Assembly (NCBI GenBank): GCA_041671125.1
Contig: JBAZCA010000004.1
Location: 23,029 to 87,028 of the forward strand
DNA length: 64,000 bases
Reading direction: 5' to 3'
DNA from: Patescibacteria group bacterium
GTDB lineage: Bacteria > Patescibacteriota > Patescibacteriia > Patescibacteriales > JBAZCA01
Positions 401-60,109 of the stretch are shown piece after piece; within the stretch, counting starts at the first letter, position 1; each line of letters begins with the position of its first letter. Position numbers and translations under genes: made by a program. Below the pieces are notes generated by a model, which was given only the letters and a program-made list of their open reading frames with translations, was not told the origin of the DNA and did no database searches.

Positions 401-480
401 AACAAATAGTGGATTAAGCGCTTAGGTTAAATGTCTTAGCAATGATAGCACTTTTTATATTAAAATCAATCAAATTAGAA

Positions 481-538
481 AGTCAAAAAGTCAGTAAGTC
501 AGAAAGTCTGGTTTACTACTGACTTTGGACTCGGGACT
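481..538. repeat. Intergenic word array/hairpin built from AGTC words followed by GACT words
   Basis: The sequence agtcaaaa-agtcagta-agtcagaa-agtctggt is followed by ...actgactttggactcgggact. The same word family occurs at 22583-22676 and inside leuS at 59592-59637. Confidence 0.7.
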
Positions 539-541
539 AAA

Positions 542-9837: not shown

Positions 9838-9872
9838 ATTGACGATTGACGATTTCCGATTGACGATTTATA
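9838..9872. repeat. Heptamer array ATTGACG x5 (attgacg attgacg atttccg attgacg atttata)
   Basis: A direct 7-nt periodicity can be read in the sequence between the two tRNAs. A related word, caattgacgat, occurs at about 9889-9899. Confidence 0.8.
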
Positions 9873-9907
9873 TTTTAATTTAAAATCGGCAATTGACGAT
9901 CATGTAT

Positions 9908-15715: not shown

Positions 15716-15790
15716 CAATCCGCAATCCGCGACTTTCAATGAGATTATAATCCAAGGATTGTTAATTAAAGGTTGATGGATTAAGGATTC
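15716..15790. repeat. Intergenic word hairpin (AATCCGC words vs GGATT words, about 7-nt phase)
   Basis: aatccgc-aatccgc ... aaggatt-gttaatt-aaaggtt-gatggat-taaggat. Confidence 0.6.
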
Positions 15791-16417: not shown

Positions 16418-16420
16418 ATT

Positions 16421-22116: not shown

Positions 22117-22584
22117 ATGCCGGCATTGGCGGAGAACAAAAAAGCATTTTTTGATTACGACCTTTTAGAAAAATTTGAGGCCGGGCTGGTTTTATATGGC
22201 CATGAGGTAAAATCCATTAAGACCGGCCACGTCAGCCTTAAAGGGTCTTACGTAACTTTTAAGGCGTCCGCCAAACCGGGAAAACTTCCCGAAGCTTACC
22301 TCATCAATTCCCATATTCCGCTATATAAGTTCGCGGGTAAAAACCTGCCGCACGATCCTTTAAGGTCAAGAAAACTACTCGTAAAGAAGAGCGAAATCAA
22401 TCATCTGATGGGCAAAAAGCAGGAACAAGGCTTGACACTCGTGCCCTTGAAAATATATACTAAGCATGGCCTTATAAAGCTTGAATTCGCTCTTGGCCGC
22501 GGGCGGAGAAAACATGACAAACGGGAAGTGATTAAGAAGCGGGAGGCCGACCGGACGATCAGGAGAACTTTGAAAACAAAATAG
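22117..22584 (+). CDS. smpB: SsrA-binding protein SmpB
   Basis: 155 aa. It contains ENKKAFFDYDLLEKFEAGLVLYGHEVKSIK...RSRKLLVKKSEI. It lies directly upstream of the tmRNA gene. Confidence 0.93.
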   Translation: MPALAENKKAFFDYDLLEKFEAGLVLYGHEVKSIKTGHVSLKGSYVTFKASAKPGKLPEAYLINSHIPLYKFAGKNLPHDPLRSRKLLVKKSEINHLMGKKQEQGLTLVPLKIYTKHGLIKLEFALGRGRRKHDKREVIKKREADRTIRRTLKTK

Positions 22585-22676
22585 TCCAGCAGTCAATTAG
22601 TCAGATAGTCAAAAGTCCGATAAGTCCGCTAGTCCGAAAAGACTGCTCAAGACTTTTGGACTTACTGACTTTGCGA
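22583..22676. repeat. AGTC/GACT word array between smpB and ssrA
   Basis: The words agtccagc-agtcaatt-agtcagat-agtcaaa-agtccgata-agtccgct-agtccgaaaa are followed by gactgctcaa-gacttttg-gacttact-gactttgc. It shares agtcaaaagtcc with the leuS-internal array. Confidence 0.75.
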
Positions 22677-23075: not shown

Positions 23076-23081
23076 CATAGA

Positions 23082-23116
23082 GATTTGCGATTTGCGATTT
23101 GCGATTGACGATTTGT
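23082..23116. repeat. Heptamer array GATTTGC x3 + GATTGAC + GATTTGT
   Basis: A perfect 7-nt phase can be read directly. Positions 23097-23114 form an imperfect inverted repeat with 23483-23500. Confidence 0.8.
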
Positions 23117-23120
23117 TTTT

Positions 23121-23498
23121 ATGGATCAACGGGAGCTCAAAGATAGGTTTAAGAAATTCGCTTTGAGAATTATGAAGTTGGCTAATAGCCTTTCTTCTGT
23201 CAATCGTGGAAGGTTAATTGGAGATCAATTGTTTAGATCCGGAACTTCTTCGGCGGCTAATTACAGAGCCGCTTTAAGAGGGAGATCTGTTAATGAATTT
23301 ATTTCTAAGTTGTGTATTGCAGAAGAGGAGTTAGATGAATGCATGTTTTGGATGGAGTTAATGATTGAAGGCGGTTTTATGAGGGAAGAGATGATTAAGC
23401 CGCTCCTTAACGAGGCTAACGAATTATTATCAATAGTAATTTCCACAAAAAAAACCACAAGAAAAAATAAATTGCAAATAGAAAATCGACAATCGTAA
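23121..23498 (+). CDS. Four-helix-bundle protein (23S rRNA intervening-sequence protein / Avd-like family)
   Basis: 125 aa. It shows the typical FALRIMKLANSL...GDQLFRSGTSSAANYRAALRGRSVNEFISKLCIAEEELDECMFWMEL. Confidence 0.8.
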   Translation: MDQRELKDRFKKFALRIMKLANSLSSVNRGRLIGDQLFRSGTSSAANYRAALRGRSVNEFISKLCIAEEELDECMFWMELMIEGGFMREEMIKPLLNEANELLSIVISTKKTTRKNKLQIENRQS

Positions 23499-23514
23499 AT
23501 TAATCAGTCATACT

Positions 23515-23598
23515 GGTCCAGTGGTGGAACTGGTATACACGAGAGACTTAAAATCTCTTGAGGGCAACCTCATGTGGGTTCGACTCCCACCTGGACCA
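23515..23598 (+). tRNA. tRNA-Leu (TAA), class II with long variable arm
   Basis: Sequence is GGTCCAGTGGTGGAACTGGTATACACGAGAGACTTAAAATCTCTTGAGGGCAACCTCATGTGGGTTCGACTCCCACCTGGACCA. Confidence 0.92.
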
Positions 23599-23668
23599 CA
23601 AATTGATTTACGATTTAGTGGATTCAGCAATGTATGTAAATCGGAAATCGTCAATCGTAAATTCATAT

Positions 23669-23740
23669 GCGGGTATCGTATAGCGGCTATTATGCTACCT
23701 TGCCAAGGTAGAGATGGGGGTCCGACTCCCCCTACCCGCT
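23669..23740 (+). tRNA. tRNA-Gly (GCC)
   Basis: Sequence is GCGGGTATCGTATAGCGGCTATTATGCTACCTTGCCAAGGTAGAGATGGGGGTCCGACTCCCCCTACCCGCT. The T loop reads TCCGACT, so C replaces the near-universal U55. Confidence 0.85.
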
Positions 23741-23751
23741 CACAACAAAAA

Positions 23752-23778
23752 ATAACCCTTAAAGGGTTATTTTTATTT
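23752..23778 (+). terminator. Terminator after the tRNA-Leu/Gly pair
   Basis: ataaccc-ttaaa-gggttat followed by TTTTTATTT. Confidence 0.7.
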
Positions 23779-23911
23779 GGTTTAATAAAGAATCAGAGGT
23801 TCGACCCGAATTTAGGGTTAGTTTAACAGATAATTTTTGAATAAAACTACTAAATTTGTTAAACTAAAAATATTGATGAGATAATAAAATATAGGTTTAA
23901 GTAACAAAAAT

Positions 23912-24886: not shown

Positions 24887-24887
24887 T

Positions 24888-25541
24888 ATGAAGTTAGTTA
24901 ATAAAAATATTTATTTCCGATTAGCGATTGTAACAGTTATTGCGGTTATTTTTATGTTAGCTTCTGTTTTTTTAATTAACAGCTTCAGACGTTGGAGAAA
25001 TGGACAGGTATTATCGCGAGTGGATTATCGGATATTTGCCTGTGGTAAAGAAATATTTCTTAAATCTGGGGAAGAATCGCCGGTCGGGAAAGGAAAAGGT
25101 TTATTTGCGCGAAGCGAACAGGGTAGCATTGTTGCTAAAGGAAAGCCGCGTTCCATCAAAGACATTACATTGCCAGCCTATTTCGGAGCTGCCGGAGGAG
25201 CGCTTGAATTTCCGACAGGAAACGAAAATACTGAAATATTTAGGGTCCCGACCAGCGCTGGCATGCGCGAATTTCGTTCGGGCGATCAGTGTAACGGGAA
25301 AAAAGCCAGTCTTCATGTGCTACATTACAGGGTGGATGCTTCAACAAAACCGTGGTCGGTTTTTAAGCGAATTTTTTGGAAATACCCTGATTACGTTTTA
25401 CAAAACAATTACGGCAAAGTTCCGCCAGGCGATTGTCTAATATTTATTTTTGATTCCGAAGATGTATTAGAGCGTCCCTGGCCGCGTTGCGCTTCTTTAG
25501 ATAAAGCCATAGCCGACGGGAGTTTGATTTTGAAAGAATAG
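24888..25541 (+). CDS. Hypothetical single-pass membrane protein (candidate immunity/partner protein)
   Basis: 217 aa. It has an N-terminal TM helix (FRLAIVTVIAVIFMLASVFLI). Its ATG lies 1 nt after the upstream stop. I recognise no family. Confidence 0.4.
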   Translation: MKLVNKNIYFRLAIVTVIAVIFMLASVFLINSFRRWRNGQVLSRVDYRIFACGKEIFLKSGEESPVGKGKGLFARSEQGSIVAKGKPRSIKDITLPAYFGAAGGALEFPTGNENTEIFRVPTSAGMREFRSGDQCNGKKASLHVLHYRVDASTKPWSVFKRIFWKYPDYVLQNNYGKVPPGDCLIFIFDSEDVLERPWPRCASLDKAIADGSLILKE

Positions 25542-25708
25542 ATCGTATTTCTATGTTTTAAAACTTTAGTAAAGGATTGATATTAACTCTTAAATGGTGT
25601 TTTTAACTTCTTCTAATAATCTGAACCGATAAACACAGGTTTGACTACGATACCTTTCAGAGCTCATGTAAATTTTCAATTGTTGATTTTAGATTGTCGA
25701 ATTAAAAG

Positions 25709-25734
25709 ACAGGGTTTTACGCCCTGTTTTTTAT
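25709..25734 (+). terminator. Terminator closing the two-gene module
   Basis: acaggg-ttttacg-ccctgt followed by TTTTTT. Confidence 0.7.
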
Positions 25735-25892
25735 TTAAGCAGTTATTTGCGCGTCCGGGATTATTCCTCTTTTTTCTCCCGGCCGGCGGCGTTCATGGCT
25801 GCGCATTCATTAAATAACCGGTTTTCGCGGGCGGTGCAGATGCTGTTATTATTAAGATGTTTTTTAGAAGCAAAGCTCAAGGCGGGCGAGAG

Positions 25893-25921
25893 TTTACAAA
25901 ATATTATCGGCATAATATACT
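25893..25921 (+). promoter_or_regulatory. Putative pur operon promoter (TTTACA-17 nt-TATACT)
   Basis: Motif and spacing match. It lies about 50 nt upstream of the purL ATG, which has an AGAGGA RBS. Confidence 0.5.
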
Positions 25922-25973
25922 AAAGTCATAAATTGCTTATTCAATTAATAAAGGTTGGTAAAAGAGGAAAATT

Positions 25974-28970
25974 ATGTCTTGCCGCGTTTACATAGAGAGC
26001 GCCATTCCCGACACCCGCGCCGAAGTGAAAAAAAATTACTTTAACAGCCTGGGGCTTAGCGTCAGGGTAAAAGCCGTCAGTCTGGCGGATTGCTACGTCA
26101 TTGATAAGGAGTTAGGCGGAGAACAGCTAAAAAAGGCCGGAGAATTGCTCGCTAACCCGTTAACCGAGCGAGCCGCGGAAAAACTTTTGGCTCCGAAAAA
26201 GTTTGACTGCGCCATAGAAATCGGCTTTCTGCCGGGGGTTACCGATAACGTCGGCGGAACGGCCAGGGAAACTTTGGAAGACGGCCTGAAAATAAAATTC
26301 GCGCCCGCGGAAAACGTATATTCGTCGCGGGTGTTTTTTGTTAGCTTTGAAAAAAAGCCCGGATCCGCTGAGTTGGAAAAAATTAAACTAAGCCTTTTTA
26401 ATCCGCTTATTGAACGGGCGGCGATTAAATTACCGGTTGATTTTAAAAAAGACGGCGGCATGGATTTAGTAATTCCTAAAGTAAAATTGGAAGCAAAAAC
26501 CGAGGTGACCGAAGTTAACCTCGCGCTAAGCGATCGCGAACTGGAGGCGCTCGGCAAGCTCGGCATAGAAAATAAAGACGGCACAAGGCGCGGGCCTTTA
26601 TCTTTAAGTCTTGATTACCTTAAAGCGATTAAAAAATATTTTGACGAACAGGGTCGGAAACCGACTGACGCGGAATTGGAAACGCTCGCCCAGACCTGGT
26701 CCGAGCATTGCAAGCATACTATTTTTGCCGACCCGATGGATGAATTGGAACGAGGCATATATAAAACTTATATCAAAGGCGCGACCGAAGCGATTCGGAA
26801 GAAAAAAGGAAAAAATGACTTTTGCGTTTCGGTTTTTACCGATAACTCGGGCGCTATTGCTTTTGACGAAAATTACCTTATTACCCATAAAGTGGAAACC
26901 CATAATACCCCCTCGGCTCTTGATCCGTTCGGCGGGAGTATTACCGGTATCGTTGGCGTGAATCGCGATTGCCTCGGTTTCGGTCTTGGCGCCAAACCGG
27001 TGATTAATATATTTGGATTCTGCCTGGCTAATCCGGATGATCGCACAGACTTATACCGCGATAAAGAAAAGAAACAGAAAATGCTTTCCGCCCGGCGGAT
27101 CATGGAGGGCGTGGTAGCCGGGATTAACGCCGGAGGAAACCAGTCCGGCATCCCGACCGATCTCGGATTTATTTATTTTGATCCCCGCTTCCGCGGCAAG
27201 CCTTTGGTTTTTGCCGGTACAATCGGAATTATTCCGCGTAAGATAAAAGGCCAGCCGTCGCATATTAAAAAATCAAAACCCGGCGACCTGATAGTTACCG
27301 TCGGCGGACGGATCGGGGCGGACGGCATTCACGGCGCGACGTTTTCTTCCGAAGGGCTCTCAGCCAACAGTCCGGCCACGGCCGTCCAGATCGGCGATCC
27401 GATTACCCAGAAGAAAATGTCTGACGCGCTAATTAAAGAAGCCCGTGATTTAGGGCTTTATTCAAGCATAACCGATTGCGGCGCCGGCGGGTTGTCCTCG
27501 GCGATCGGCGAAATGGCCGAAGCGACAGGCGGTTGTATCGTCAATTTAGAAAAAGCGCCTCTTAAATACCCGGGGCTCGCTCCCTGGCAAATCTGGATTT
27601 CCGAATCGCAGGAGAGGATGGTGCTTTCGGTACCGGAAAAAAATTGGCCCGCCCTGCGCTCCCTTCTTTTAAATCGGGGAGTGGAAGCCGAAGTAATCGG
27701 TAAATTTACTGACTCAGGAAAAGCCTCTGTAAAATTCGGGAAAGAAATTGTCCTTGATTTGGACATGGATTTTCTTCATAACGGCCGGCCGATAAAAAAA
27801 CAGGCAACGAAAAAACCCGCGCAAACGGATTCGTCTCTCCCCTTCGTAAGGGGAGGGAATAATAAAAAAAATTATTCCAAAGAAATTTTAAAGTTGTTAT
27901 CGCGATTAAACATTTCCAGTTTTGAATTTATTACCCGGCAATACGATCACGAAGTCCAGGCCGGCTCGGTTTTAAAACCTTTGCAGGGAGCCGGAAGAAT
28001 TAATACTGAAGCAACAGTTACCCGGCCGGTTTTAAATTCTAAAAAAGGCGTAGTTTTATCCTCGGCTCTTTATCCGGCTTTAAGCGAAGCCGATCCTTAT
28101 AAAATGGCCGCCAATTCAATTGACGGCGCGGTCCGGGCGGCGGTCGCGGCCGGGGCGGATATTGATAATCTCGCGCTTCTTGATAATTTTTGCTGGTCCA
28201 GCTCCGAAAAACCGGAAAGGCTTTGGCAGTTAAAAGAAGCCGCCCGGGCCTGTTATGATACGGCCGTCGCGTACGGCACGCCGTTTATTTCCGGCAAAGA
28301 CAGTATGTTTAATGACTTTAAGGGTTTTGACGCGGACGGAAAGCCGATAAAAATTTCCATTCCGCCGACGCTTCTTATTTCCGCTATCGGCGTTATTCCG
28401 GACGCGGTAGAGTCAATATCGCTTGATGCTAAAGTCCCGGGCGATTATATATATGTGATAGGCGATACGGGTAATGAAATGGGTAATAGTGAATATTCGA
28501 CCATGTTAAAATCCGGCTTGTCAGTTGAAACGGCCGCGGAAACCGGAACAGTTCCTGAAATTAATCCTGAAAAAAATTACCGAAGCTATAAAGCATTTTT
28601 TAAAGCCGCGCGAAAGAACTTAATCGCTTCAGCCATAAGCATAAGCCGCGGCGGACTGGCTGTCGCTTTGGTTAAAACTTTGGCCGGTGGACGGCTAGGA
28701 GGCGAAATCAGTTTAAAGGATTTGCCGGGAAACTGGAGCGAAAATTACCAGGCGCTCTTTTCGGAAAATGGCGGCAGGATTTTAGCGACCGTGGCGAAAA
28801 ACAAAGCAACGGAATTTGAAAAAACCATATCCGGCGCTTCTTTTTTCCGGATCGGCCGGGTAAAAACTGGCGCTGATGTAATAATTTTTAACAGTAATAA
28901 AAAAATAATTGCCAGTTTAAAGATTAAAGATATTTTAAAAGCCTATCGGCAAAGTCTCGGAAGCTATTAG
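25974..28970 (+). CDS. purL: FGAM synthase, large-type synthetase subunit without glutaminase domain (PurL with fused PurS-like N-terminal region)
   Basis: 998 aa. It contains ETLAQTWSEHCKHTIF, KVETHNTPSALDPFGGSITG and ITDCGAGGLSSAIGEMA. It has about 200 more N-terminal aa than small PurL. No purS ORF is present in the window. Confidence 0.88.
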   Translation: MSCRVYIESAIPDTRAEVKKNYFNSLGLSVRVKAVSLADCYVIDKELGGEQLKKAGELLANPLTERAAEKLLAPKKFDCAIEIGFLPGVTDNVGGTARETLEDGLKIKFAPAENVYSSRVFFVSFEKKPGSAELEKIKLSLFNPLIERAAIKLPVDFKKDGGMDLVIPKVKLEAKTEVTEVNLALSDRELEALGKLGIENKDGTRRGPLSLSLDYLKAIKKYFDEQGRKPTDAELETLAQTWSEHCKHTIFADPMDELERGIYKTYIKGATEAIRKKKGKNDFCVSVFTDNSGAIAFDENYLITHKVETHNTPSALDPFGGSITGIVGVNRDCLGFGLGAKPVINIFGFCLANPDDRTDLYRDKEKKQKMLSARRIMEGVVAGINAGGNQSGIPTDLGFIYFDPRFRGKPLVFAGTIGIIPRKIKGQPSHIKKSKPGDLIVTVGGRIGADGIHGATFSSEGLSANSPATAVQIGDPITQKKMSDALIKEARDLGLYSSITDCGAGGLSSAIGEMAEATGGCIVNLEKAPLKYPGLAPWQIWISESQERMVLSVPEKNWPALRSLLLNRGVEAEVIGKFTDSGKASVKFGKEIVLDLDMDFLHNGRPIKKQATKKPAQTDSSLPFVRGGNNKKNYSKEILKLLSRLNISSFEFITRQYDHEVQAGSVLKPLQGAGRINTEATVTRPVLNSKKGVVLSSALYPALSEADPYKMAANSIDGAVRAAVAAGADIDNLALLDNFCWSSSEKPERLWQLKEAARACYDTAVAYGTPFISGKDSMFNDFKGFDADGKPIKISIPPTLLISAIGVIPDAVESISLDAKVPGDYIYVIGDTGNEMGNSEYSTMLKSGLSVETAAETGTVPEINPEKNYRSYKAFFKAARKNLIASAISISRGGLAVALVKTLAGGRLGGEISLKDLPGNWSENYQALFSENGGRILATVAKNKATEFEKTISGASFFRIGRVKTGADVIIFNSNKKIIASLKIKDILKAYRQSLGSY

Positions 28971-29049
28971 GTTAAAAAACCGGATTAAAATCAAGGCTAA
29001 TACTGCTTGATTTTTAGTTTTTATCGGGGTATACTAAACATACATAATA

Positions 29050-29820
29050 ATGATTCATCCAAAAATAATTATTCTTTCCGGCTACGGCCTTAACTGCGAA
29101 GAAGAAACCGCCCATGCTTTTAATTTGGCCGGCGGCAAAGCGGAAATCGTCCATATTAACGACCTCGTAGCCGGAAGAAAAAAACTGAAAAACTACGAGA
29201 TACTGGCTGTTCCGGGCGGTTTCTCCTACGGCGACGATACTGGTTCGGGCAAGGCTTACGCCAATAAGCTGAAGAATCATTTAAGAGAAGAGCTGAATGA
29301 ATTTGTTTTAAAAGATAAGCTGGTAATCGGCATCTGCAACGGTTTTCAAATATTAACTCAGACCGGCCTTTTACCCGGGGCGCTTAAGACCAATAAGAAC
29401 GCGCGCTATCTTGACCGCTGGGTGGATTTGAAAATTTCGGGAAAGTCGCTTTGGTTAAAAGGGATAAAAAAGTTGTCCCTGCCTATTGCTCATGGCGAAG
29501 GAAAATATTTTGCCGATAAAAACATTTTAGCTGGGTTGAAAAAAGAAAACGGTATTGTCTTAAAATACGTTAAGGGCGAGATTTGCGAGTACCAGGATTT
29601 AGAGCCTAACCCTAACGGCGCCATGGAAGATATCGCCGGAATAACCGGTTACAACGGCCGGGTTTTAGGGCTCATGCCCCATCCGGAGCGCGCCATGTTT
29701 TTTCATCATCTGCCAAATTGGCCGGTCAGAAAAGAAAAACTGTCGCGCAAAGGTTCGCCGTTGCCTGAATATGGGCCGGGCATGAGGATTTTTAAAAACG
29801 CCATTGGATATTTTAAATAA
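29050..29820 (+). CDS. purQ: FGAM synthase glutaminase subunit PurQ
   Basis: 256 aa. It is a class I amidotransferase with GGFSYGD, GICNGFQIL and MPHPER motifs. Confidence 0.9.
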   Translation: MIHPKIIILSGYGLNCEEETAHAFNLAGGKAEIVHINDLVAGRKKLKNYEILAVPGGFSYGDDTGSGKAYANKLKNHLREELNEFVLKDKLVIGICNGFQILTQTGLLPGALKTNKNARYLDRWVDLKISGKSLWLKGIKKLSLPIAHGEGKYFADKNILAGLKKENGIVLKYVKGEICEYQDLEPNPNGAMEDIAGITGYNGRVLGLMPHPERAMFFHHLPNWPVRKEKLSRKGSPLPEYGPGMRIFKNAIGYFK

Positions 29821-29889
29821 TTGAATTTAACATTGACTGCCGGATGGCTTTCGCGCCGACAGCCTGTTTTATTATTCATCATTATAGCT

Positions 29890-31284
29890 ATGGCCAAAAT
29901 CGGTGAAAAATGCGCTGTGTTTGGGATTTACGGCAAAGGGCTTGACGTTTCCCGGCTGACTTTTTATGGGCTCTTCGCTCTCCAGCACCGCGGCCAGGAA
30001 TCATCCGGCATAGCGGTCGGGGACGGCAATGAACTTGACTGCTATAAGAACGCGGGGCTGGTAACCAACGTCTATAACGAGCGGATTATCAAAAGCCTCC
30101 GGGGCCATCTCGCCGTCGGCCATAACCGCTATTCCACCTCAGCCGGATCCGGGCTTGAGCACGCCCACCCGGTTGTAATTGATGATAAACTGGCTTTAGT
30201 TCATAACGGTAACCTGCCTTCGGTAGCGGCCCTGGTTGAATTCTTAAAATCCAAAGGCCAGCGAACCCGGGGCTATTCTGATTCGGAGCTGATGGCTTAC
30301 GCCATCCACTGGCACATGGAAAACGGTAAAAATCTTTCGGACGCGGTAGAGGCCGCGTTCCCTTTGTTTACGGGCGCTTTTTCCGCCCTGGCCATGACCC
30401 GCGATACGCTCGTGGCTTTCCGCGACCAGTGCGGCATCCGGCCTTTTGCCGCCGGAAAAATAAACGGCGGGTATGTTTTTTCCTCGGAAACCTGCGCTTT
30501 TAAATTGATTGGCGCCGAATTTTTGCGCGAAGTTAATCCGGGCGAGATTATTACGGTTAACGAAGAAGGCTTAAAATCCGTCCAGGCGGCTTTGGCTGAC
30601 CCGAAAATTGACATCTTTGAATTTGTTTATTTTTCCCGGCCGGATTCGGAAATCGCCGGCCAGCTGGTTTATGATGTCCGGCGTAATTTTGGCCTCACTC
30701 TCGCCAAAGAAAATCCTTTAGATATTGACGTGGTCGTGCCGGTGCCGGAAACGGCTATCCCGGTCGCCATCGGCTATAGCGCCGGATTAAAAGTTCCTTT
30801 TGAAATGGGGCTGATAAAAAACCGCTACGTCCACCGGACTTTTATTGAACCGGATCAGCACACCCGCGACCTCGGCGTTTTAATGAAATTTATTCCTCTT
30901 TCCAATGTCCTTCGCGGCAAACGGGTGGCGCTGATGGATGATTCCATTGTCCGCGGCACGACTTCCCAGAAATTAGTCAAAGCCATTTTTGACGCTGGAG
31001 CCAAAGAAGTCCACATGATAATAAGCTCCCCGCCTTTGGTTTATCCGGATTTTTACGGCATTGATACTCCGGAGCAGGGAAGGTTAATCGCGGCTCATAA
31101 AACCGTGCCGGAAATTTGCGAATTTTTAGGAGCCACTTCGCTATATTATCTTTCGTTAGAAGGTATGATCAGTTCCACCGGCCTGCCTGCCGACCGTTTT
31201 TCCACTTCCTGTTTTACCGGCGTTTATCCGGTTGATTTGCGCGAGAGAGTGAAAGACTATAAGAAACCGGAATATGGAAATTAA
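29890..31284 (+). CDS. purF: Amidophosphoribosyltransferase
   Basis: It starts MAKIGEKCAVFGIYG, a short propeptide before the catalytic Cys. It contains LQHRGQESSGI and the PRTase motif VALMDDSIVRGTT. I chose the ATG at 29890 over the TTG at 29821. Confidence 0.9.
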   Translation: MAKIGEKCAVFGIYGKGLDVSRLTFYGLFALQHRGQESSGIAVGDGNELDCYKNAGLVTNVYNERIIKSLRGHLAVGHNRYSTSAGSGLEHAHPVVIDDKLALVHNGNLPSVAALVEFLKSKGQRTRGYSDSELMAYAIHWHMENGKNLSDAVEAAFPLFTGAFSALAMTRDTLVAFRDQCGIRPFAAGKINGGYVFSSETCAFKLIGAEFLREVNPGEIITVNEEGLKSVQAALADPKIDIFEFVYFSRPDSEIAGQLVYDVRRNFGLTLAKENPLDIDVVVPVPETAIPVAIGYSAGLKVPFEMGLIKNRYVHRTFIEPDQHTRDLGVLMKFIPLSNVLRGKRVALMDDSIVRGTTSQKLVKAIFDAGAKEVHMIISSPPLVYPDFYGIDTPEQGRLIAAHKTVPEICEFLGATSLYYLSLEGMISSTGLPADRFSTSCFTGVYPVDLRERVKDYKKPEYGN

Positions 31285-31310
31285 GGTAAGTAATATGAGG
31301 ACAGTTTAAT

Positions 31311-31445
31311 TTTCAATTATCAATTACCAATGATCAATAAATTTTCAATTAACCAATTCCTAAATTTTCAAACGTTTGAAAATTAAATCATTGAAACATT
31401 GAAAATTTATTGAAAATTGAAAATTGATCATTGGTAATTGAATTT
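31311..31445. repeat. Nested inverted heptamer arrays between purF and purN
   Basis: The left array is tcaatta-tcaatta-ccaatga-tcaataa. The right array is attgaaa-attgaaa-attgatc-attggta-attgaat. An exact 18-nt arm, caattaccaatgatcaat (31321-31338), pairs with 31423-31440. A central perfect palindrome, ttttcaaacgtttgaaaa, sits at 31365-31382. Confidence 0.85.
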
Positions 31446-31450
31446 ATATT

Positions 31451-32170
31451 ATGCGTATTGCCATGCTCATCTCCGGCGGCGGAACGACGATGGCCGCTAT
31501 CTTAATCGCCGTTAAGAATGGGCGGCTAAAAAACGTGGAGCCGGTTTTAGTAATTGCCTCTAAACCTGATTCGCAAGGGATTGAAAAAGCCCTGAATCTC
31601 GGCATGCCCAAGGAAGATGTCATAGTCGTTAAACCCAAAGATTTTAAAACAAGGGAAGAATTCGGTCAGAAAATTATTGACGAATGTAAAAAGCGGAACG
31701 TGAAATTCATCGGCCAATATGGCTGGTTATGTCTGACTCCGGAAAATGTAATAAAAGAATTTGAGGGGATGATAGTTAATCAGCATCCGGGGCCGCTAGA
31801 TCCCGGGCGACCGGATTTCGGCGGCAAAGGGATGTTCGGCCGGGCGGTGCACTCCGCCAGACTGGAATTTGTTCATAGGACAAATCGTGATTACTGGACT
31901 GAAGCGACGGCCCACCGGGTAACGGCTGAATATGACCGGGGAGCGGTATTAAATATTGTTAAAGTATTGATAGAAAAAGATGATGACGTTGACGCGCTTC
32001 AGCAAAGGGTTTTGCCTTTTGAATATGAAGCGCAGATAAAAACTTTGCAGGATTTTGCCGATGGGAATATAAAAGAAATAATTCGCGCTGAACCGTTAGT
32101 TCGGCCGGAAGAATATGAAATATTGGAAGAGTGCAAAAAATTAGCGATAGAAAAATATCCTAAGGGTTAA
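31451..32170 (+). CDS. purN: Formyltransferase, probable phosphoribosylglycinamide formyltransferase (atypical PurN)
   Basis: 239 aa. It starts MRIAMLISGGGTTMAAIL and has an NQHPGPLD motif in place of NIHPSLLP. It lies within the pur operon. Confidence 0.6.
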   Translation: MRIAMLISGGGTTMAAILIAVKNGRLKNVEPVLVIASKPDSQGIEKALNLGMPKEDVIVVKPKDFKTREEFGQKIIDECKKRNVKFIGQYGWLCLTPENVIKEFEGMIVNQHPGPLDPGRPDFGGKGMFGRAVHSARLEFVHRTNRDYWTEATAHRVTAEYDRGAVLNIVKVLIEKDDDVDALQQRVLPFEYEAQIKTLQDFADGNIKEIIRAEPLVRPEEYEILEECKKLAIEKYPKG

Positions 32171-32180: not shown

Positions 32181-32326
32181 GTCATCCCGAGGAGGAACGA
32201 CGAGGGATCTAACCGCGCTAATCATGAAGATAAATTGAATTGAAAAAAATAAAAATTGTTTTGTTTGAAATTTAATTTGATAAAATCATTTTGAGCAATT
32301 AGATCCTTCGCTCCGCTCAGGATGAC
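32181..32326. repeat. GTCAT...GATGAC inverted-repeat element (long copy, AT-rich interior)
   Basis: The left end is gtcatcccgaggaggaacgacgagggatct. The right end is agatccttcgctccgctcaggatgac. Confidence 0.8.
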
Positions 32327-39082: not shown

Positions 39083-39170
39083 TTCTTCCGTTGACAATCA
39101 GGTGAATGCCTGTTTTTTTATATCCACGAAGCTATTCTGCGGTATCGCGGGAATGATTTAAGGAAACTAT

Positions 39171-39368
39171 ATGGGAAAGATGAAAACTCACAAAGCTACG
39201 GCTAAAAGGTTTAAAATAACCAAAAATAAAAAAGTCCTGAAACGGAAAGCCGGTCAGGATCATTTTAACGCCCGCGAAACAGGCGCCGTAAAGCGCCGGA
39301 AAAGGCGGGATATTCTTCTGTCAAAAAGCGATGTGAAGAATATTAAGCTGATGATGCCCTATAACTAA
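39171..39368 (+). CDS. rpmI: 50S ribosomal protein L35
   Basis: 65 aa. It starts MGKMKTHKATAKRFKITKNKKVLKRKAGQDHFN. Confidence 0.93.
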   Translation: MGKMKTHKATAKRFKITKNKKVLKRKAGQDHFNARETGAVKRRKRRDILLSKSDVKNIKLMMPYN

Positions 39369-39394
39369 ATTTGAAATTTGAAATTTAAAATTAA
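39367..39394. repeat. Heptamer array AAATTTG x2 + AAATTTA + AAATTAA
   Basis: The 7-nt phase can be read directly between rpmI and rplT. Confidence 0.7.
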
Positions 39395-39773: not shown

Positions 39774-40001
39774 ATGAAGTATCTTCAAATAGCTCAGCCG
39801 ATTATCGCCATCCTCCTTATAGTTTCCATCCTCCTGCAGAACCGGGAATCCGGGCTGTCCGGCGTTTTCGGCGGCGGCGGAACGGTTTTTCGGACCAAGC
39901 GGGGGTTAGAAAAAATATTATTTATCGCCACTATTGTTTTAGTCGTGATCTTTATCGGCATTTCTCTCGCAAGCCTGGTATTTGGAACTCAGAGCGCTTA
40001 G
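39774..40001 (+). CDS. secG: Preprotein translocase subunit SecG
   Basis: 75 aa with two TM helices flanking the motif LLQNRESGLSGVFGGGG. Confidence 0.8.
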   Translation: MKYLQIAQPIIAILLIVSILLQNRESGLSGVFGGGGTVFRTKRGLEKILFIATIVLVVIFIGISLASLVFGTQSA

Positions 40002-44929: not shown

Positions 44930-46024
44930 TTAAAGACGGAGACCGGGGTCGGCTATTACTTTTTCCGGTTTGCTAAACCCGCGGCCTTTGGACTGAAAAT
45001 ATCCGGCCGCGGCGATCATGGCGGCGTTGTCGGTTGAATAAATTGAATTTGGAATTTGGAATTTGGAATTTGGAATTTTATTCTTTATAGCTTCGTCCAT
45101 CTTTTGCCGCAGTTCTTTATTAGCGGAAACGCCGCCGGAGAGCATGATAGTCTTTACCTTATATTCATCGGCGGCTTTAAGGGTTTTAGCGATAAGGACA
45201 TCTATTATTGCCTGCTGGAACTCAGCCGCGTATTCAGGGATATGTTTTTTCCAGTTTTGGTCTTTTTGTACTTTGTACAATAGCGCGGTTTTCAGGCCGG
45301 AAAAAGAAAATTCATAATTGCCGCTGTTAATCATTGGCCGGGGGAGAGTGATTTGTGATTGGTGATTTGAAAATTTAGCGGCCTCAGCCGCGATAGCCGG
45401 TCCGCCCGGATAACCAAGCCCTAAAATTCTTGCGGCTTTGTCAAAAGCTTCGCCGGCCGCGTCATCCCGGGTCTCTCCGATTGTTTTGTATTTCCCATAG
45501 TCCGTCATGAGCACGAGCATGGTATGGCCGCCCGAGACCGTCAAAACCAGGGCGGGAAATTGAAGGCTGGTTTTTGTTTGTTTGGCTAGAGAATTGCCAG
45601 CCGCGCCAGCCGGTTCCAGCCAATTCGCGTAAATATGGCCTTCAATGTGGTTGACCGCGATAAGGGGCAGTTGCCAGGCGAAAGCCAGGGCTTTCGCGGT
45701 TTCTACGCCGACCATCAGCGAAGTCGCGAGCCCGGGTCCGGCGGTTACGGCAATGGCGTCTAACCCCGCCCCAGCCCTCCCCGATTCCTTTCGTCGCGGG
45801 GAGGGTAATATTATTCCGGATTTTTTTAGCGTCTCATCAATCACCGGAATGATCATTAAGATGTGTTTGCGCGCCGCCACTTCCGGGATGACACCGCCGT
45901 AGCCTTTGAATGTTTCTATCTGTGAAGAAACGACACTGGAAAGGACTCTGATTCTCGTGCCTTTTGCTTCTATTATTGCCGCCGCGGTTTCGTCGCAACT
46001 TGATTCAATGCCGAGTATAATCAT
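44930..46024 (-). CDS. tsaD: tRNA N6-adenosine threonylcarbamoyltransferase TsaD
   Basis: It starts MIILGIESSCDETAAAI and contains VNHIEGH, SGGHT, AAGEAFDKAARILGLGYPGGP, SFSGLKT and STDNAAMIA. I prefer the ATG at 46024 over the TTG at 46057. Confidence 0.92.
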   Translation of the reverse strand: MIILGIESSCDETAAAIIEAKGTRIRVLSSVVSSQIETFKGYGGVIPEVAARKHILMIIPVIDETLKKSGIILPSPRRKESGRAGAGLDAIAVTAGPGLATSLMVGVETAKALAFAWQLPLIAVNHIEGHIYANWLEPAGAAGNSLAKQTKTSLQFPALVLTVSGGHTMLVLMTDYGKYKTIGETRDDAAGEAFDKAARILGLGYPGGPAIAAEAAKFSNHQSQITLPRPMINSGNYEFSFSGLKTALLYKVQKDQNWKKHIPEYAAEFQQAIIDVLIAKTLKAADEYKVKTIMLSGGVSANKELRQKMDEAIKNKIPNSKFQIPNSIYSTDNAAMIAAAGYFQSKGRGFSKPEKVIADPGLRL

Positions 46025-46240
46025 ATTGGAAAATAAAAATGTAAAAACTAATCCCAAGTACTCGGGAATAATGACAATGCCGAATAATTTTAAATTTTAA
46101 TTTTTAAGTTTTAAATGAATTTTAATTGACTAAATTTTAAATTAGCAAGGACTCGTAATTTACCATTTTAAATTTAAAATTGATTTAAAATTGAAAATTT
46201 ATAACTTAAAATTATAATCTGTCATTTTCTATTTTATTTT

Positions 46241-53239: not shown

Positions 53240-54469
53240 TTAGCCGACAAAGTTTGGCGCATCGGCGCTGAATTTTTTAAAATCAGAGATGATTTTTTTA
53301 ATCATGTCCCTGGTTATGTCCCGTCCGCCAAGGCCGACGACGAAACTTTTTATTTCGGCCGGGTTTTTCTGGAGGACGGCTTTTAGATCCGAAGCCAGCG
53401 GCCCGATATGGCCTAAAGATATGGATTTATCAATAACCGCTATTTTTTTCGTTTTTTCGCAGATTTTTCCGATCTCTTTGCCAGGAAAAGGCCGGAAGCA
53501 TTTTATTTTTAAAATTCCGACCCGATGTCCGGCGGATTTTTTATCCGCATTCCATTCGTCAACAGCTTCTTTCATGGTTCCGATGACCGATCCCATGGCG
53601 ACGAGAATAATGTCCGGATTTTTCGGGCCATAGTATTCGGTTAAACCCGTATCTCGTATCTCATATCTCATATCTCGCCTGCCTGCCGACGAGGCAGGTA
53701 TTTTATCTTTTTTCTGATTTTTCGTTTCAGCCAGGCTAAAGATGTTCATCAGTTTTTCATATTCATCCGAAATAATTTTTTTTGAAGCCAGGATGTCGTC
53801 ATTTAAGTCCTGCCTTATTTCCATGTAATGGTCAGGTGTCGCGAGCGCCCCGAGGGTAACCGGGTTAGCCGGATCAAGATATTCTCCGGTTTTTGGCTTA
53901 TAATCCGGCAAGAATTTTTTTATGGTTTTTTCATCCGGAAGCGCCACCGGCTCAAGGGTGTGGGTAAGGATAAATCCGTCCAGGTTTACCATGACCGGAA
54001 TTTGCAGTTTTTCCGCTACTTTATAAGCGAGCAAATGCTGGGCAATAGTTTCCTGGACGTCTTCGGCGAAAAGCATGATCCAGCCGGCGTCGCGGACGGC
54101 CATGGCGTCGGACTGGTCGTTCCAGATATTAATCGGAGCGGAAACCGCCCGGTTGGCGACGGTCATGACAACCGGCAGGCGCATGCCAGCGATATTAAAA
54201 ACTACTTCAGCCATAAGCAATAGTCCCTGGGAGCTCGTTGCCGTATAAGTCCGTACCCCAGCCGCCGAAGCGCCGGCGACTATGGAAGCGGCGGCGAATT
54301 CGCTTTCGGCCCGGACATATTCGTATTTTCCTTCACCGTCGGCTTTGAATTTCGCCAGGTCTTCAACAATGTGGGTTTGGGGAGTTATCGGGTAAGCCGA
54401 AACCACGCCCGGGTTTATGAGGTTTATTAACTTTGCTATGGCGTTTGAGCCTTCAAGAATTTGCCGCAT
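53240..54469 (-). CDS. porA: 2-oxoacid (pyruvate):ferredoxin oxidoreductase alpha subunit
   Basis: 409 aa. It contains EGSNAIAKLINLINPGVVSAYPITPQT, ESEFAAASIVAGASAAGVRTYTATSSQGL and LVAMGS. Confidence 0.85.
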   Translation of the reverse strand: MRQILEGSNAIAKLINLINPGVVSAYPITPQTHIVEDLAKFKADGEGKYEYVRAESEFAAASIVAGASAAGVRTYTATSSQGLLLMAEVVFNIAGMRLPVVMTVANRAVSAPINIWNDQSDAMAVRDAGWIMLFAEDVQETIAQHLLAYKVAEKLQIPVMVNLDGFILTHTLEPVALPDEKTIKKFLPDYKPKTGEYLDPANPVTLGALATPDHYMEIRQDLNDDILASKKIISDEYEKLMNIFSLAETKNQKKDKIPASSAGRRDMRYEIRDTGLTEYYGPKNPDIILVAMGSVIGTMKEAVDEWNADKKSAGHRVGILKIKCFRPFPGKEIGKICEKTKKIAVIDKSISLGHIGPLASDLKAVLQKNPAEIKSFVVGLGGRDITRDMIKKIISDFKKFSADAPNFVG

Positions 54470-57481: not shown

Positions 57482-60109
57482 ATGGCTAAATACAATCACA
57501 AAGAAATTGAACCGAAATGGCGAAAGAATTGGGATGAGTCGGGAATTTATAAAACTGGAGAAGGTAAGGACAAGCCCAAATACTATATCCTGGACATGTT
57601 TCCGTATCCTTCGGGCGCCGGGCTGCATGTCGGCCACCCCAAAGGCTACATTGCTACGGATGTGTATGGAAGAATGAGGATGATGCAGGGGTATAATGTC
57701 TTGCACCCAATGGGCTGGGACGCGTTCGGCCTGCCGGCCGAGAATTTTGCCCTCGCGAACAAAGTCCATCCGCGGATAGCGACGGAAAAAAATATCGCCA
57801 CTTTTAAAAAACAGCTCGCGCAATTAGGCTTTACTTATGACTGGGAGCGGGAAATCAATACGACTGACCCGGAATTTTATAAATGGACCCAGTGGATATT
57901 TTTAGAAATGTTTAAACGCGGCCTGGCATACGAATCGCGCGAACCGATAAATTGGTGCCCGTCCTGCAAAACCGGCCTCGCTAACGAAGACCTTGAAAAC
58001 GGACGTTGCGAGCGTTGCGGTTCGGTCGTGGAAAAAAAGCCCATGCGGCAATGGGTTCTAAAAATCACCGCTTATGCCGAACGGATGCTGGATGACTTAG
58101 AAAAACTGCCGGACTGGGAAGAGTCTATTAAGGAAATGCAGAAGAATTGGATTGGGAAATCGGAAGGAGCAAGTATAAAATTTCCTGTCATTCTGAGTGC
58201 AGCGGAGCGGAACGAAGAATCTCGTGAAGAGACGGGATCCTTCGCTGACGCTCAGGATGACGTTAGTATTAAGGTTTTTACTACTAGACCTGATACTCTT
58301 TTCGGCGCGACTTACATGGTTTTGGCGCCGGAGCATGAATTAATTAAGAATTATGAATTAAGAATTAAGAATTATGGAGAGGTTAAAAAATACGCTGAAG
58401 ACGCGAAGAAGAAAAGCGAGATAGACCGGGCGGATGTGCAAAAAGAAAAAACCGGCGTTGAGTTAAAGGGAGTGAAGGCAATTAATCCGGTTAATAACGA
58501 GGAAATCCCGGTTTTTGTCGCCGACTATGTTTTAGCCGGTTATGGAACCGGGGCGATTATGGCGGTTCCGGGACATGACGAGCGGGATTTTGAGTTCGCG
58601 AAAAAATACGGACTGGCTATCAGGGAGGTTGTTAAAGCCGAAAAGAAAAATGACGGAGAATGTTTTAGCGGCGAAGGCGTTAGCGTTAATTCCGGGTTTT
58701 TAGACGGCCTTACGACCCCTGAAGCTAAGAAAAAAATGATTTTTTGGCTGGAAGAAAAAGGTATTGGCAAGAAATCAGTGAGTTACAAAATTAAAGACTG
58801 GGTTTTCTCAAGGCAAAGATACTGGGGAGAACCTTTTCCGCTTGCCTATTGCGAACACTGCAAAAATGCGGTTGATGACTTTATTGCCACTTCAAAAATT
58901 GACCTGGGAAAAATTAGATCCTTCGCCTCCTCCGCTGATGCGGGGTCAGCTCAGGATGACAGAGAGAGAGGCGGTTTTACTCTCGGTGAATTATTAAATC
59001 CCGGTTGGATCGGTGTTGATGAATTACCTGTTACATTGCCCGAAGTAGAACATTATGAACCGACCGGAACCGGCGAATCGCCGCTGGCGAATATTGTCGA
59101 ATGGGTGAATACTAAATGTCCGAAATGCGGGGGCGCGGCTAAGCGGGAAACCAACACCATGCCGCAGTGGGCCGGGTCGTCCTGGTATTATCTTAGGTTT
59201 GAAGATCCGAAAAATGATCAGGCTTTGGTTAATAAGGAAAAAGAAAAATACTGGTCGCCGGTGGATTTTTACGTCGGCGGAGCCGAACACGCCACCCGGC
59301 ATTTAATTTACGCCCGCTTCTGGCATAAATTTTTATACGACATCGGCGCTGTCTCTTATGACGAACCGTTTACCCGGCTCCAGCATGTCGGTTTGATATT
59401 AGCCGAAGACGGACGGAAGATGAGTAAGCGTTGGAATAACGTTATCAATCCGGATGAAATCGTTGAAAAATACGGGGCGGACGCCATGCGGGTTTATGAA
59501 ATGTTCATGGGGCCGTTTTCCCAGCCAGTAGCCTGGAATACTAACGGGCTTATTGGGGCGAGGAAATTTCTTGAACGAGTATGGAAATTGAAGTCAAAAG
59601 TCCAGAAGTCAGAGAGTCAAAAGTCCAGAAGTCAGAAGCTTGATAATTTACTTCACAAGACCATAAAAAAAGTCGGGGAAGATATTGAATCGTTTAAATT
59701 TAATACGGCCATTTCCCAGATGATGATCCTGGTTAACGAGATGACCGCGGCTGATGGCCTTAGTAAGGAACAATATCAAGCGTTACTAAAAATACTCGCG
59801 CCGTTCGCCCCGCATTTATGCGAAGAGCTTTGGACGGAAGTGAGAAGCGAGAAAGAATTGGAGAGTATATTTAATGAAGAGTGGCCGAAATATGATCCAG
59901 AGTTAATTAAGGATGAAATAATTGAACTGGTTATCCAGGTGAACGGCAAAGTTAGGGACATGATCAGCGTGGACGCGGAAGTTTCCGAAGAAGAAGCGAA
60001 GAAAATCGCTTTGGAAAGCGAGAACGTAAAAAAATGGACTAAAGGGAAAAGGGCGGAAAAAATCGTGTATGTCAAAGGAAAGCTGGTTAGTATCGTGGTT
60101 AAAGATTAG
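57482..60109 (+). CDS. leuS: Leucyl-tRNA synthetase (carrying repeat-derived in-frame segments)
   Basis: 875 aa. It has the HIGH-type motif PYPSGAGLHVGHP and the KMSKS motif KMSKRW. It also contains FTTRPDTLFGATYMVLAPEH and CP1/editing-domain features. Confidence 0.95.
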   Translation: MAKYNHKEIEPKWRKNWDESGIYKTGEGKDKPKYYILDMFPYPSGAGLHVGHPKGYIATDVYGRMRMMQGYNVLHPMGWDAFGLPAENFALANKVHPRIATEKNIATFKKQLAQLGFTYDWEREINTTDPEFYKWTQWIFLEMFKRGLAYESREPINWCPSCKTGLANEDLENGRCERCGSVVEKKPMRQWVLKITAYAERMLDDLEKLPDWEESIKEMQKNWIGKSEGASIKFPVILSAAERNEESREETGSFADAQDDVSIKVFTTRPDTLFGATYMVLAPEHELIKNYELRIKNYGEVKKYAEDAKKKSEIDRADVQKEKTGVELKGVKAINPVNNEEIPVFVADYVLAGYGTGAIMAVPGHDERDFEFAKKYGLAIREVVKAEKKNDGECFSGEGVSVNSGFLDGLTTPEAKKKMIFWLEEKGIGKKSVSYKIKDWVFSRQRYWGEPFPLAYCEHCKNAVDDFIATSKIDLGKIRSFASSADAGSAQDDRERGGFTLGELLNPGWIGVDELPVTLPEVEHYEPTGTGESPLANIVEWVNTKCPKCGGAAKRETNTMPQWAGSSWYYLRFEDPKNDQALVNKEKEKYWSPVDFYVGGAEHATRHLIYARFWHKFLYDIGAVSYDEPFTRLQHVGLILAEDGRKMSKRWNNVINPDEIVEKYGADAMRVYEMFMGPFSQPVAWNTNGLIGARKFLERVWKLKSKVQKSESQKSRSQKLDNLLHKTIKKVGEDIESFKFNTAISQMMILVNEMTAADGLSKEQYQALLKILAPFAPHLCEELWTEVRSEKELESIFNEEWPKYDPELIKDEIIELVIQVNGKVRDMISVDAEVSEEEAKKIALESENVKKWTKGKRAEKIVYVKGKLVSIVVKD
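58187..58261. repeat. GTCAT...GATGAC element copy (75 nt = 25 codons) inside the leuS reading frame
   Basis: gtcattctgagtgcagcggagcggaacgaagaatctcgtgaagagacgggatccttcgctgacgctcaggatgac is translated as VILSAAERNEESREETGSFADAQDD. Confidence 0.85.
58916..58960. repeat. Half element (AGATCCTTCGC...CTCAGGATGAC, 45 nt) inside the leuS reading frame
   Basis: agatccttcgcctcctccgctgatgcggggtcagctcaggatgac is translated as RSFASSADAGSAQDD. Confidence 0.75.

Follow-up and report, generated by a model that had tools for sequence, protein, structure and literature searches.

Why does a bacterium of the Patescibacteria, whose genomes are among the most compact bacterial genomes, carry a long palindrome of seven-nucleotide words between two genes of its pur operon? 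The palindrome lies in a 64-kb stretch of DNA (the window in the following; ~45% G+C) from an uncultured member of the Patescibacteria (candidate phyla radiation), and it fills the junction between purF and purN exactly. An earlier note on the sequence had listed it among many gene gaps with tandem words, mostly of a 7-nt period and often followed by the complementary word. The answer that we favour, at roughly even confidence, is that the purF–purN hairpin is a young and dispensable DNA quasi-palindrome of degenerate heptamers. It would be one of the A+T-rich heptamer microsatellites occurring throughout the Patescibacteria, generated by slippage and fold-back duplication and tolerated at operon junctions. 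Any function would be secondary, most likely RNA punctuation or processing as in an intervening sequence (IVS), via a stem cut by RNase III, and not classical termination.

Structure of the purF–purN hairpin

The hairpin is a quasi-palindrome of 138 nt, in which two 69-nt arms of 77% complementarity meet with a spacer of 0 nt (Table 1). As RNA it is predicted to fold with −42.2 kcal/mol (z = −5.45), and 0 of 200 shuffled sequences fold equally well. When both arms are split at C|AAT, odd-length variants of 15, 8, and 11 nt appear in each, mirrored outward from the centre, while the arms disagree in the placement of the AATTTTC-type heptamer units. The longest exact match between the arms (31320–31338 with 31423–31441) is shifted by 7 nt, one heptamer, from the symmetric register. 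An exact arm and a central palindrome, each of 18 nt, had been proposed; both exist, with lengths of 19 and 22 nt, respectively. We infer from the sequence that one composite array was duplicated in inverted orientation to give the two arms, and that slippage at the level of single units followed.

BLAST searches of the window, of ~140 loci and of 10 kb of extra contig returned only self-matches of the hairpin, ~84 kb of its own genome being searchable. Rfam at gathering thresholds finds only tRNAs and the transfer-messenger RNA (tmRNA) in the whole window, with no family at the hairpin. The tracts are also no clustered regularly interspaced short palindromic repeats (CRISPR), which consist of 23–50-nt direct repeats with unique spacers, whereas here the units of 7–8 nt are contiguous.

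Excess of the 7-nt period

Lag-autocorrelation scans were compared with composition-keeping shuffles, and the suspected excess of period 7 held in the window as well as in 1.38 Mb of related DNA. Tandem Repeats Finder detects ~20 period-7 arrays in the window. Runs of 10 nt or more that match exactly at lag 7 number 8 versus 0.16 expected, and segments with 18 of 21 lag matches occur 6 times at period 7, versus 0.02 in shuffles, and zero times at periods 2–5 and 9–13. Among the non-codon tandem periods of the window, only period 7 is strongly over-represented. The intergenic DNA, 14% of the window, holds 6 period-7 arrays where 0.01 are expected, at a density ~12 times that in genes. Among the 1.38 Mb of Patescibacteria purF loci, arrays with at least 2.5 exact copies number 36 versus 3.0 expected for period 7, 115 versus 102 for period 5, and 3 versus 0 for period 8. 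At two copies the period-7 excess in these loci is only 1.6-fold, so that the heptamer bias arises at the expansion stage, from 2.5 copies upward. A 50-kb control from E. coli contains 0 period-7 arrays.

Of the tracts that the earlier note had pointed out, those at 9838, 15716, 23082, 39367, 481, 22583, 45045, 45347, 53651, and 59592 are all present. As described there, the tracts are concentrated in gene gaps and occur in coding DNA too, namely in the genes for TsaD, PFOR-alpha, and LeuRS. Folding in silico is significant for 22575–22686, 15712–15799 and, on the minus strand, 462–545 and 46078–46222. It is weaker for 9832–9908 and fails for 42485–42575 (z = −0.6); a fold at 23600–23668 is likewise not significant (z = −1.1). 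The idea of a strictly locus-specific word had to be given up. Words are diverse and A+T-rich (14 distinct canonical words among 16 arrays), but two families recur. AGTC-N4 triplets at 481–508, 22583–22670, and 59599–59618 give 6 matches versus 0 expected, with closely alike copies at 489–508 and 22651–22670. CGATTKN tandems number 16 versus 3.8 expected, all of them beside stable-RNA genes.

The placement of 48 arrays was surveyed in the window and 80 loci. Of the 48, 10 have an inverted tandem partner no more than 160 nt away, versus 2–3 of 48 with reversed or complemented control words; partners therefore exceed the controls, but at ~20% of arrays they are not as frequent as "often" had implied. 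Fourteen arrays lie within genes and 28 adjoin the 5′ end of a gene. Seventeen of these 28 finish between −5 and +13 nt from the ATG, 16 of them without a Shine–Dalgarno-like motif. Such a motif is found within 20 nt of the start in 8 of 53 window genes and is missing in 45, and initiation in this organism seems, from the sequence, to be independent of Shine–Dalgarno sites. The composition of the arrays (A 40%, T 37%, C 14%, G 9%) is the same as that of ordinary leaders (~73% A+T in the window), and the notion that G-poor arrays serve as special unstructured leaders was rejected on this ground. Since most genes lack a Shine–Dalgarno motif and the leaders match in composition, we read the position before the ATG as permissive and not special.

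Absence in close relatives and steps of whole units

A protein search with PurF matches Patescibacteria assemblies only. The closest are L001 (89% amino acid identity) and L002 (78%), and the next-best matches are Doudnabacteria-like genomes at ~63%. L001 is syntenic with the window over a 25-kb block (16560–41977) at ~80% nucleotide identity. L133, another public assembly, agrees with window positions 13121–33498 (20.4 kb) at 100% identity, every repeat tract included, which answers the concern that the tracts might be assembly artefacts. The assemblies L130, L131, L132, and L081, which are 84–96% identical to the window, are referred to as relative B.

The purF–purN hairpin is absent in three assemblies of two lineages, L001, L081 (83% PurN identity), and L131 (purF 95% identical in nucleotides), and purF and purN overlap there. 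Its absence in the nearest relatives with overlapping genes means that the hairpin is young, or was imported by a recombination ending there, and also that, as far as these sequences tell, it is dispensable. The ATGAGGA shortly before the hairpin appears to be a relic of the ancestral overlapping junction (Table 1). Together with ATGCGTA on the downstream side it forms flanks identical at 5 of 7 positions; this similarity could stem from a decayed target-site duplication or from recombination. In relative B, purF is 95% identical up to 31278, and purN follows 10 nt on, with no hairpin and with identity falling to 82%.

One identity boundary to relative B coincides with the hairpin. Along window positions 13427–31872, compared with L130/L131, identity is ~85% in 13427–20565, 93–96% in 22123–31278, and 82% in purN. 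This mosaic suggests recombination between the lineages.

Steps of whole units are seen directly between strains. The GATTTGC array at 23082 is one 7-nt unit longer in the window than in relative B, while the array in the tRNA-Leu/Gly spacer (23600–23665) is 21 nt longer in relative B. L136 and L137 encode a 100% identical four-helix-bundle protein, and the array upstream of it differs by 14 nt. These differences of 7, 14, and 21 nt, each between identical flanks, are direct evidence of slippage by heptamer units, which the earlier note had suggested as a mechanism. Tandem 7-nt copies above shuffles and copy changes by whole units are the two marks of heptameric simple sequence repeats (SSRs), and both are found here. 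The comparison of orthologous regions further shows that arrays turn over between relatives. L001 lacks all array hairpins that the window has in the 25-kb syntenic block; at purF/purN, smpB/tmRNA, and tmRNA/tRNA-Leu it has a 9–12-nt spacer or overlapping genes. The smpB–tmRNA junction carries an AGTC-word hairpin in the window, an unrelated hairpin in relative B and none in L001, with flanks nearly identical between the window and relative B.

From array to hairpin

We propose a route in three steps. Replication slippage would lengthen or shorten arrays by whole 7-nt units, the step that is visible between strains. Strand-switch (fold-back) copying may then convert an array to an inverted pair, and later template switching between the arms may preserve complementarity while the words drift; this step is proposed because the odd-length variants are mirrored and the centre is perfect with zero loop. 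The products would accumulate in very short operon junctions, because Shine–Dalgarno sites are hardly used and the region before the ATG need only be A/U-rich. There the hairpin would fold out of the co-transcribed mRNA, so that the cistrons stay together.

Two further observations point to a process at the DNA level. RNA folding is better in the sense than in the antisense direction in only 5 of 18 array hairpins (−41.5 versus −43.4 kcal/mol for the purF–purN hairpin), and this lack of a sense advantage suggests DNA symmetry over a selected RNA stem. The coding arrays in TsaD, PFOR, and LeuRS lie in variable segments and alter the length hardly or not at all versus solved homologues; arrays in variable loops of essential genes argue for a mutational process indifferent to function.

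Several findings weigh against this route. Array hairpins with differing words recur at the purF–purN junction of at least seven genomes (the window, L002, L003, L005, L006, L008, and L061) and at a membrane-fusion/ABC-ATPase junction (L026, L032, and L033). These recurrent hairpins end 3–13 nt ahead of the ATG, which looks like positional selection or targeted insertion, and L002 has ATTGAAA-like words at the same purF–purN junction as the window. Given the drop of identity from 95% to 82% at the junction, the hairpin may have come by recombination. Other hairpin families of the genome are paralogous or demonstrably mobile, and unrelated smpB–tmRNA hairpins in near-identical backgrounds are explained more easily by insertion than by drift. 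Why the period is 7 is left to the published hypothesis of a polymerase footprint.

This compact genome tolerates, or is colonised by, junction hairpins of 100–170 nt where its nearest relatives overlap their genes, and array junctions are a natural system for studying the birth of intergenic DNA. The unit-step differences provide direct evidence of heptamer-specific slippage in an uncultured lineage, and the arrays might be used as strain markers. They are also an annotation hazard, as such tracts cause spurious N-terminal extensions and can pass for terminators.

Cassettes with a four-helix-bundle gene

The main alternative, though rather improbable, is an origin of the purF–purN hairpin from a mobile IVS-like cassette with inverted heptamer termini, whose autonomous form would carry a TIGR02436 gene. 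The hairpin would be a non-autonomous derivative that lacks the open reading frame (ORF) and was imported by insertion or recombination. A cassette of this build is present in the window at the tmRNA/tRNA-Leu junction, and the whole of it (23082–23500) is absent from L001. We examined 11 four-helix-bundle loci (9 distinct sequences), and all lie in operon junctions. At least 9 of the 11 are visibly flanked by pairing inverted repeats, which are mostly word arrays: the loci of the window, L043, L074, L020, L073, L136/L137, L138, and L140/L141 are bracketed, while L006 and L135 have only one clearly visible flank. The repeat around the L074 cassette is a perfect inverted repeat of 25 nt. Homologues with 57–75% identity to the window protein share CGATTnn words, and remoter homologues have other words. 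CGATT hairpins without an ORF, located beside tRNA genes, look like the cassette arms; they adjoin the cassette and are alike in their 3′ arms.

An imported hairpin would agree with its variable presence among close relatives at a possible recombination breakpoint, with two different hairpins at the same smpB–tmRNA site, and with the mobile or dispersed nature of further hairpin elements of this genome. However, the purF–purN hairpin is single-copy in all data searched (64–84 kb of its own genome), and its AATTNNC words match no cassette seen. Deletion of an ORF would not leave a perfect zero-loop centre, and these cassettes are not known to have a transposase, to make target-site duplications or to yield an excision product.

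A broader speculation, which we consider unlikely, is that TIGR02436/PF05635 genes with inverted heptamer arrays form an unrecognised class of compact IVS-like cassettes in several phyla; those seen are in Patescibacteria and one planctomycete. The words would co-evolve with a recognising protein, and ORF-less hairpins like that of purF–purN would be non-autonomous derivatives. If true, a specific selfish element would stand behind unexplained bacterial heptamer repeats, and the "S23p" family would gain a function. The four-helix-bundle family of unknown function gains a testable hypothesis, namely that the protein binds or travels with the arrays, and the idea may also hold for the heptamer repeats that still lack an explanation in cyanobacteria, Bacteroidetes, and Beggiatoaceae.

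Regulatory and other explanations

It is quite unlikely, in our estimate, that the purF–purN hairpin is a selected cis-regulatory element of the pur operon, whether as an intercistronic RNA stem tuning the relative stability or translation of purF versus purN, as an RNase III site, or as a binding array for an RNA- or DNA-binding protein of the kind proposed for TAACTGA repeats. For such a role speak the recurrence of structure and position at purF–purN while the sequence turns over, and the hairpins that stop just short of the ATG. Where purF has no tandem gene behind it, the downstream hairpins are ordinary non-periodic stems. Translational regulation has been proposed for heptamer arrays before start codons (PMC4679880). 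The hairpin upstream of sodA (15716–15790) is 98–100% conserved in relative B, where the flanking coding DNA is 70–97% identical, and it folds with −22.2 kcal/mol in sense versus −12.5 kcal/mol in antisense, an exception among the array hairpins. Unlike most of them, it is a candidate functional RNA by these predictions, and some array members may have a selected regulatory role.

Against regulation at purF–purN stand the three closest relatives, which lack the hairpin and have overlapping genes, and the missing gain in sense-strand folding. There is no T-tract, terminator call or Rfam match at this locus. Moreover, many kinds of housekeeping genes are affected, and arrays occur inside coding regions too.

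The earlier note had considered terminators as a function of the arrays. A Rho-independent terminator, with its short G+C-rich stem-loop and T-run, is not supported, as the long stems are A+T-rich, lack a T-tract and abut the next ATG, and a consensus terminator/promoter scan calls neither the purF–purN hairpin nor the other array hairpins as terminators. The same scan finds classical terminators elsewhere in the genome, e.g. at 23748–23774 and 39099–39112; in total its terminator calls show no excess over shuffles (33 versus 28.8). Since the array hairpins adjoin the next ATG, there is no room for a promoter. A promoter-like match at the purF–purN hairpin (TTGATC-17-TATTAT) is weak and overlaps the ATG, and a leaderless or internal promoter within the right arm was rejected on spacing. 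A search for RNase III motifs in the 64-kb window gave no match and is uninformative. A hairpin that bridges the Shine–Dalgarno site to the ATG, known from genes 25 and 38 of phage T4, was considered for GAGGA, 3 nt before the window hairpin, and rejected as a general explanation, as nothing comparable is found at other purF–purN hairpins.

In Haemophilus, expression of the hmw adhesin genes is tuned by the unit number of upstream 7-bp repeats, and heptamer-repeat phase variation is known in other bacteria. That the present arrays are such contingency (phase- or rheostat-variable) repeats, with the unit number tuning downstream expression, would agree with unit numbers that differ between strains and with arrays in the 5′ leader. 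We consider it very improbable, as the genes concerned have housekeeping roles (purN, rplT, tRNAs, tmRNA, ABC ATPase) rather than surface or restriction functions, the arrays have few copies (3–5), and the purF–purN tract is a palindrome and not a simple array. An assembly artefact or chance low complexity can practically be dismissed: metagenome assemblers can produce false inverted duplications and the spacers are ~75% A+T, but the identical sequence is in a second assembly, the tract lies mid-contig between intact genes, composition-keeping shuffles yield ~0 arrays, and the same architecture recurs in dozens of independent assemblies.

Relation to known repeats and elements

Miniature inverted-repeat transposable elements (MITEs), repetitive extragenic palindromes (REP) and bacterial interspersed mosaic elements (BIME) are intergenic, hairpin-forming and co-transcribed palindromic elements with presence/absence polymorphism. 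The purF–purN hairpin is like MITE and REP elements in being an intergenic hairpin of variable presence, and the same genome has a true dispersed family of this kind (GTCATCC…GGATGAC). Unlike them, the purF–purN hairpin is single-copy, has no terminal repeats common to other loci, and has an internal 7-nt period.

The cyanobacterial short tandemly repeated repetitive (STRR) sequences are also tandem intergenic heptamers of lineage-wide occurrence. They differ in having few fixed words at very high copy number, none of which is tandem here. Of the words of the STRR, Xanthomonas–Nostoc, and TAACTGA repeats, the window contains no tandem TAACTGA, CCCCAGT, TTGGTCA, CAACAGT, GGGAATC or GGGGAYT. STRR heptamers are mentioned for Calothrix (PMC4692102).

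The earlier note knew of no description of such arrays. However, PMC4692102, citing a 2007 survey, describes heptameric repeats as over-represented in bacteria and proposes that they arise by slippage related to the footprint of the polymerase, and heptamer arrays at start codons are published too (PMC4679880). The bacterial heptamer SSRs described there resemble the present arrays in the 7-nt unit, the intergenic bias, length and sequence variation among close relatives, some inverted pairs, and the proposed origin by slippage. The GGGAATC repeats of Xanthomonas and GGGGAYT repeats of Nostoc (PMC4692102) have one dominant G-rich word capable of forming a G-quadruplex, in contrast to the many A+T-rich words here, and in these Patescibacteria many arrays are paired as long hairpins filling operon junctions.

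In marine Beggiatoaceae, cyanobacteria, and Bacteroidetes, direct TAACTGA repeats closely precede start codons (PMC4679880). They share with the present arrays the 2–6 copies, the end a few nucleotides from the start codon over the position of the ribosome-binding site, hosts with few Shine–Dalgarno sites, and some arrays within ORFs. Arrays near a start without a Shine–Dalgarno motif are found here as well, but in a genome that is generally without such motifs (8 of 53 genes have one). Unlike the present arrays, TAACTGA is a single fixed word and almost never forms inverted repeats (PMC4679880).

IVSs of 23S rRNA have complementary termini and sometimes an S23p ORF, occur sporadically and are excised through cleavage by RNase III (PMC4990558). 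Common to them and the present elements are a long (here predicted) terminal stem, an optional PF05635/TIGR02436 ORF, sporadic presence among close relatives, a presumed tolerance by folding out of the host RNA, and ORF-less forms of ~100–200 nt. A stem around an ORF is found in the cassettes at 23082–23500, in L043, in L138, and in others, and the purF–purN hairpin has the stem only. In contrast to 23S rRNA IVSs, which sit in helix 9, 25, or 45, the elements here lie between protein, tRNA, and tmRNA genes and have stems of tandem heptamer words.

The elements share traits with heptamer SSRs, TAACTGA repeats, and IVSs yet belong to none of them. A literature search of limited coverage gave nothing that links heptamer repeats with Patescibacteria or the candidate phyla radiation, nor four-helix-bundle genes with flanking heptamer arrays or inverted repeats. 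The bacterial heptamer excess is thus already known. No account of its setting in Patescibacteria, of hairpins built from such arrays, or of their link with cassettes turned up in the searchable literature.

Other features of the window

The features are collected in Table 1. The AAATTTG array before rplT has the right form for a slippery heptamer of ribosomal frameshifting; this was rejected, as the array is non-coding.

Table 1. Coordinates of the purF–purN hairpin, the heptamer arrays, and the cassettes (window positions unless a locus is given)
Feature	Position	Strand	Remarks
purF (amidophosphoribosyltransferase)	29821..31284	+	gene upstream of the purF–purN hairpin
ATGAGGA	31296..31302	+	aligns with the purN start region of hairpin-less relatives (ATGAGGA / ATGAGAA)
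Hairpin, left arm	31305..31373	+	words AATTTTC AATTATC AATTACC AATGATC, then 11-, 8-, 15-nt variants
Hairpin, centre	31363..31384	.	perfect 22-nt palindrome AATTTTCAAACGTTTGAAAATT, loop-free
Hairpin, right arm	31374..31442	+	ATTGAAA-type words; 15-, 8-, 11-nt variants mirrored, heptamer units placed otherwise than left
purN (formyltransferase)	31451..32170	+	ATG 8 nt past hairpin end
AGTC-word array (8-nt period), then inverted GACT words	477..541	.	hairpin directly after stop of minus-strand YibE/F gene
CGATTGA-word hairpin	9838..9905	+	tRNA-Arg / tRNA-His spacer
CAATCCG / GGATT hairpin	15716..15790	+	upstream of sodA
AGTC-word hairpin	22579..22676	+	between smpB and tmRNA
Cassette 5′ array, GATTTGC x3, then GATTGAC	23082..23120	+	one 7-nt unit more than in relative B
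TIGR02436 / PF05635 four-helix-bundle ("23S rRNA intervening sequence protein") gene	23121..23498	+	125 aa
Cassette 3′ inverted array AAAATCGACAATCGTAAAT	23466..23500	+	pairs with 23082–23120 in minimum-free-energy and centroid folds
ORF-less CGATT-word inverted arrays	23600..23665	+	tRNA-Leu / tRNA-Gly spacer; 3′ half resembles cassette 3′ arm
AAATTTG x3.7 array	39367..39392	+	ends 3–8 nt ahead of rplT ATG
GAATTTG x4.9	45045..45078	-	copies 100% identical; inside tsaD, residues 327–338, variable segment
GTGATTT x3.1	45348..45369	-	inside tsaD, residues 230–237
AATTTTA / TAAAATT inverted arrays	46084..46215	.	42-nt arms, 86% complementary; minus-strand glycosyltransferase (Glyco_transf_5)–tsaD junction
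CGTATCT x4.3	53648..53677	-	inside PFOR-alpha, inter-domain linker, residues 265–274
AATTAAG x4.7	58342..58374	+	inside leuS, editing domain, residues 287–298
AGTC-word array, 23-nt super-unit x2	59590..59638	+	inside leuS, residues 703–719
GTCATCC…GGATGAC family copies	32181–32326, 51663–51755, 55471–55548, 56328–56476; L134 ~14480–14510
Cassette	L043 9549–9988		purQ–purF junction
Cassettes	L074 ~3745–4165; L020 ~14330–14800; L073 ~13395–13880
Cassette	L136/L137 ~555–990		DUF3467–dnaJ junction
Cassette	L138 (planctomycete) ~550–990		mreB–mreC junction
Cassette	L140/L141		tmRNA–tRNA junction

Several further inverted or dispersed repeats lie in the window. The dispersed hairpin family has termini GTCATYYYGAG…CTCRGGATGAC and variable cores of ~80–150 nt; its copy at the purN/purD junction (32181–32326) is absent in L001. 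A 184-nt inverted-repeat element (GAATGTGTTTAAAAACC…GGTTTTTAAGCACATTC) occupies 39997–40180, a site that is empty in L001. It is found at 89% identity in relative B at another junction (MatE/LRR gene; L130 1490–1673), which makes it mobile. The element at 19108–19273, at the junction of a DHH-family gene and trigger factor, has 26-nt inverted arms of 96% complementarity around a 97-nt core; it is common to the window and relative B, is absent in L001, and over-extends the trigger-factor ORF call at the N-terminus. Another dispersed intergenic repeat has two 84-nt copies (16434–16517 and 49271–49353) with 94% identity. At 8451–8614, nested non-periodic inverted repeats (26-nt arms, 88% complementary; 35-nt arms, 71%) span the start of a VanW-domain gene and the spacer before an Hsp20 gene.

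In comparison with L001, the window has extra genes in 20566–22122 and 23743–25971, one of them for a TrmB-like regulator (21186–21989). The interval 23743–25971 is ~1.1 kb longer than in L001 and has two ORFs without a Pfam match (23912–24886 and 24888–25541), which are also in relative B, followed there by an extra sulfate-transporter gene. Exact-protein look-ups for PurN and for the ORF at 1641–2135 gave no match. On the same contig, ~5.7 kb past the window end, lies a gene of giant size (at least 3089 aa; L134 15711–20867) with no Pfam match. The tag peptide predicted for the tmRNA (22687–23076), ANSFASKVRNGVFAVPAFAPVVA, is unusually long.

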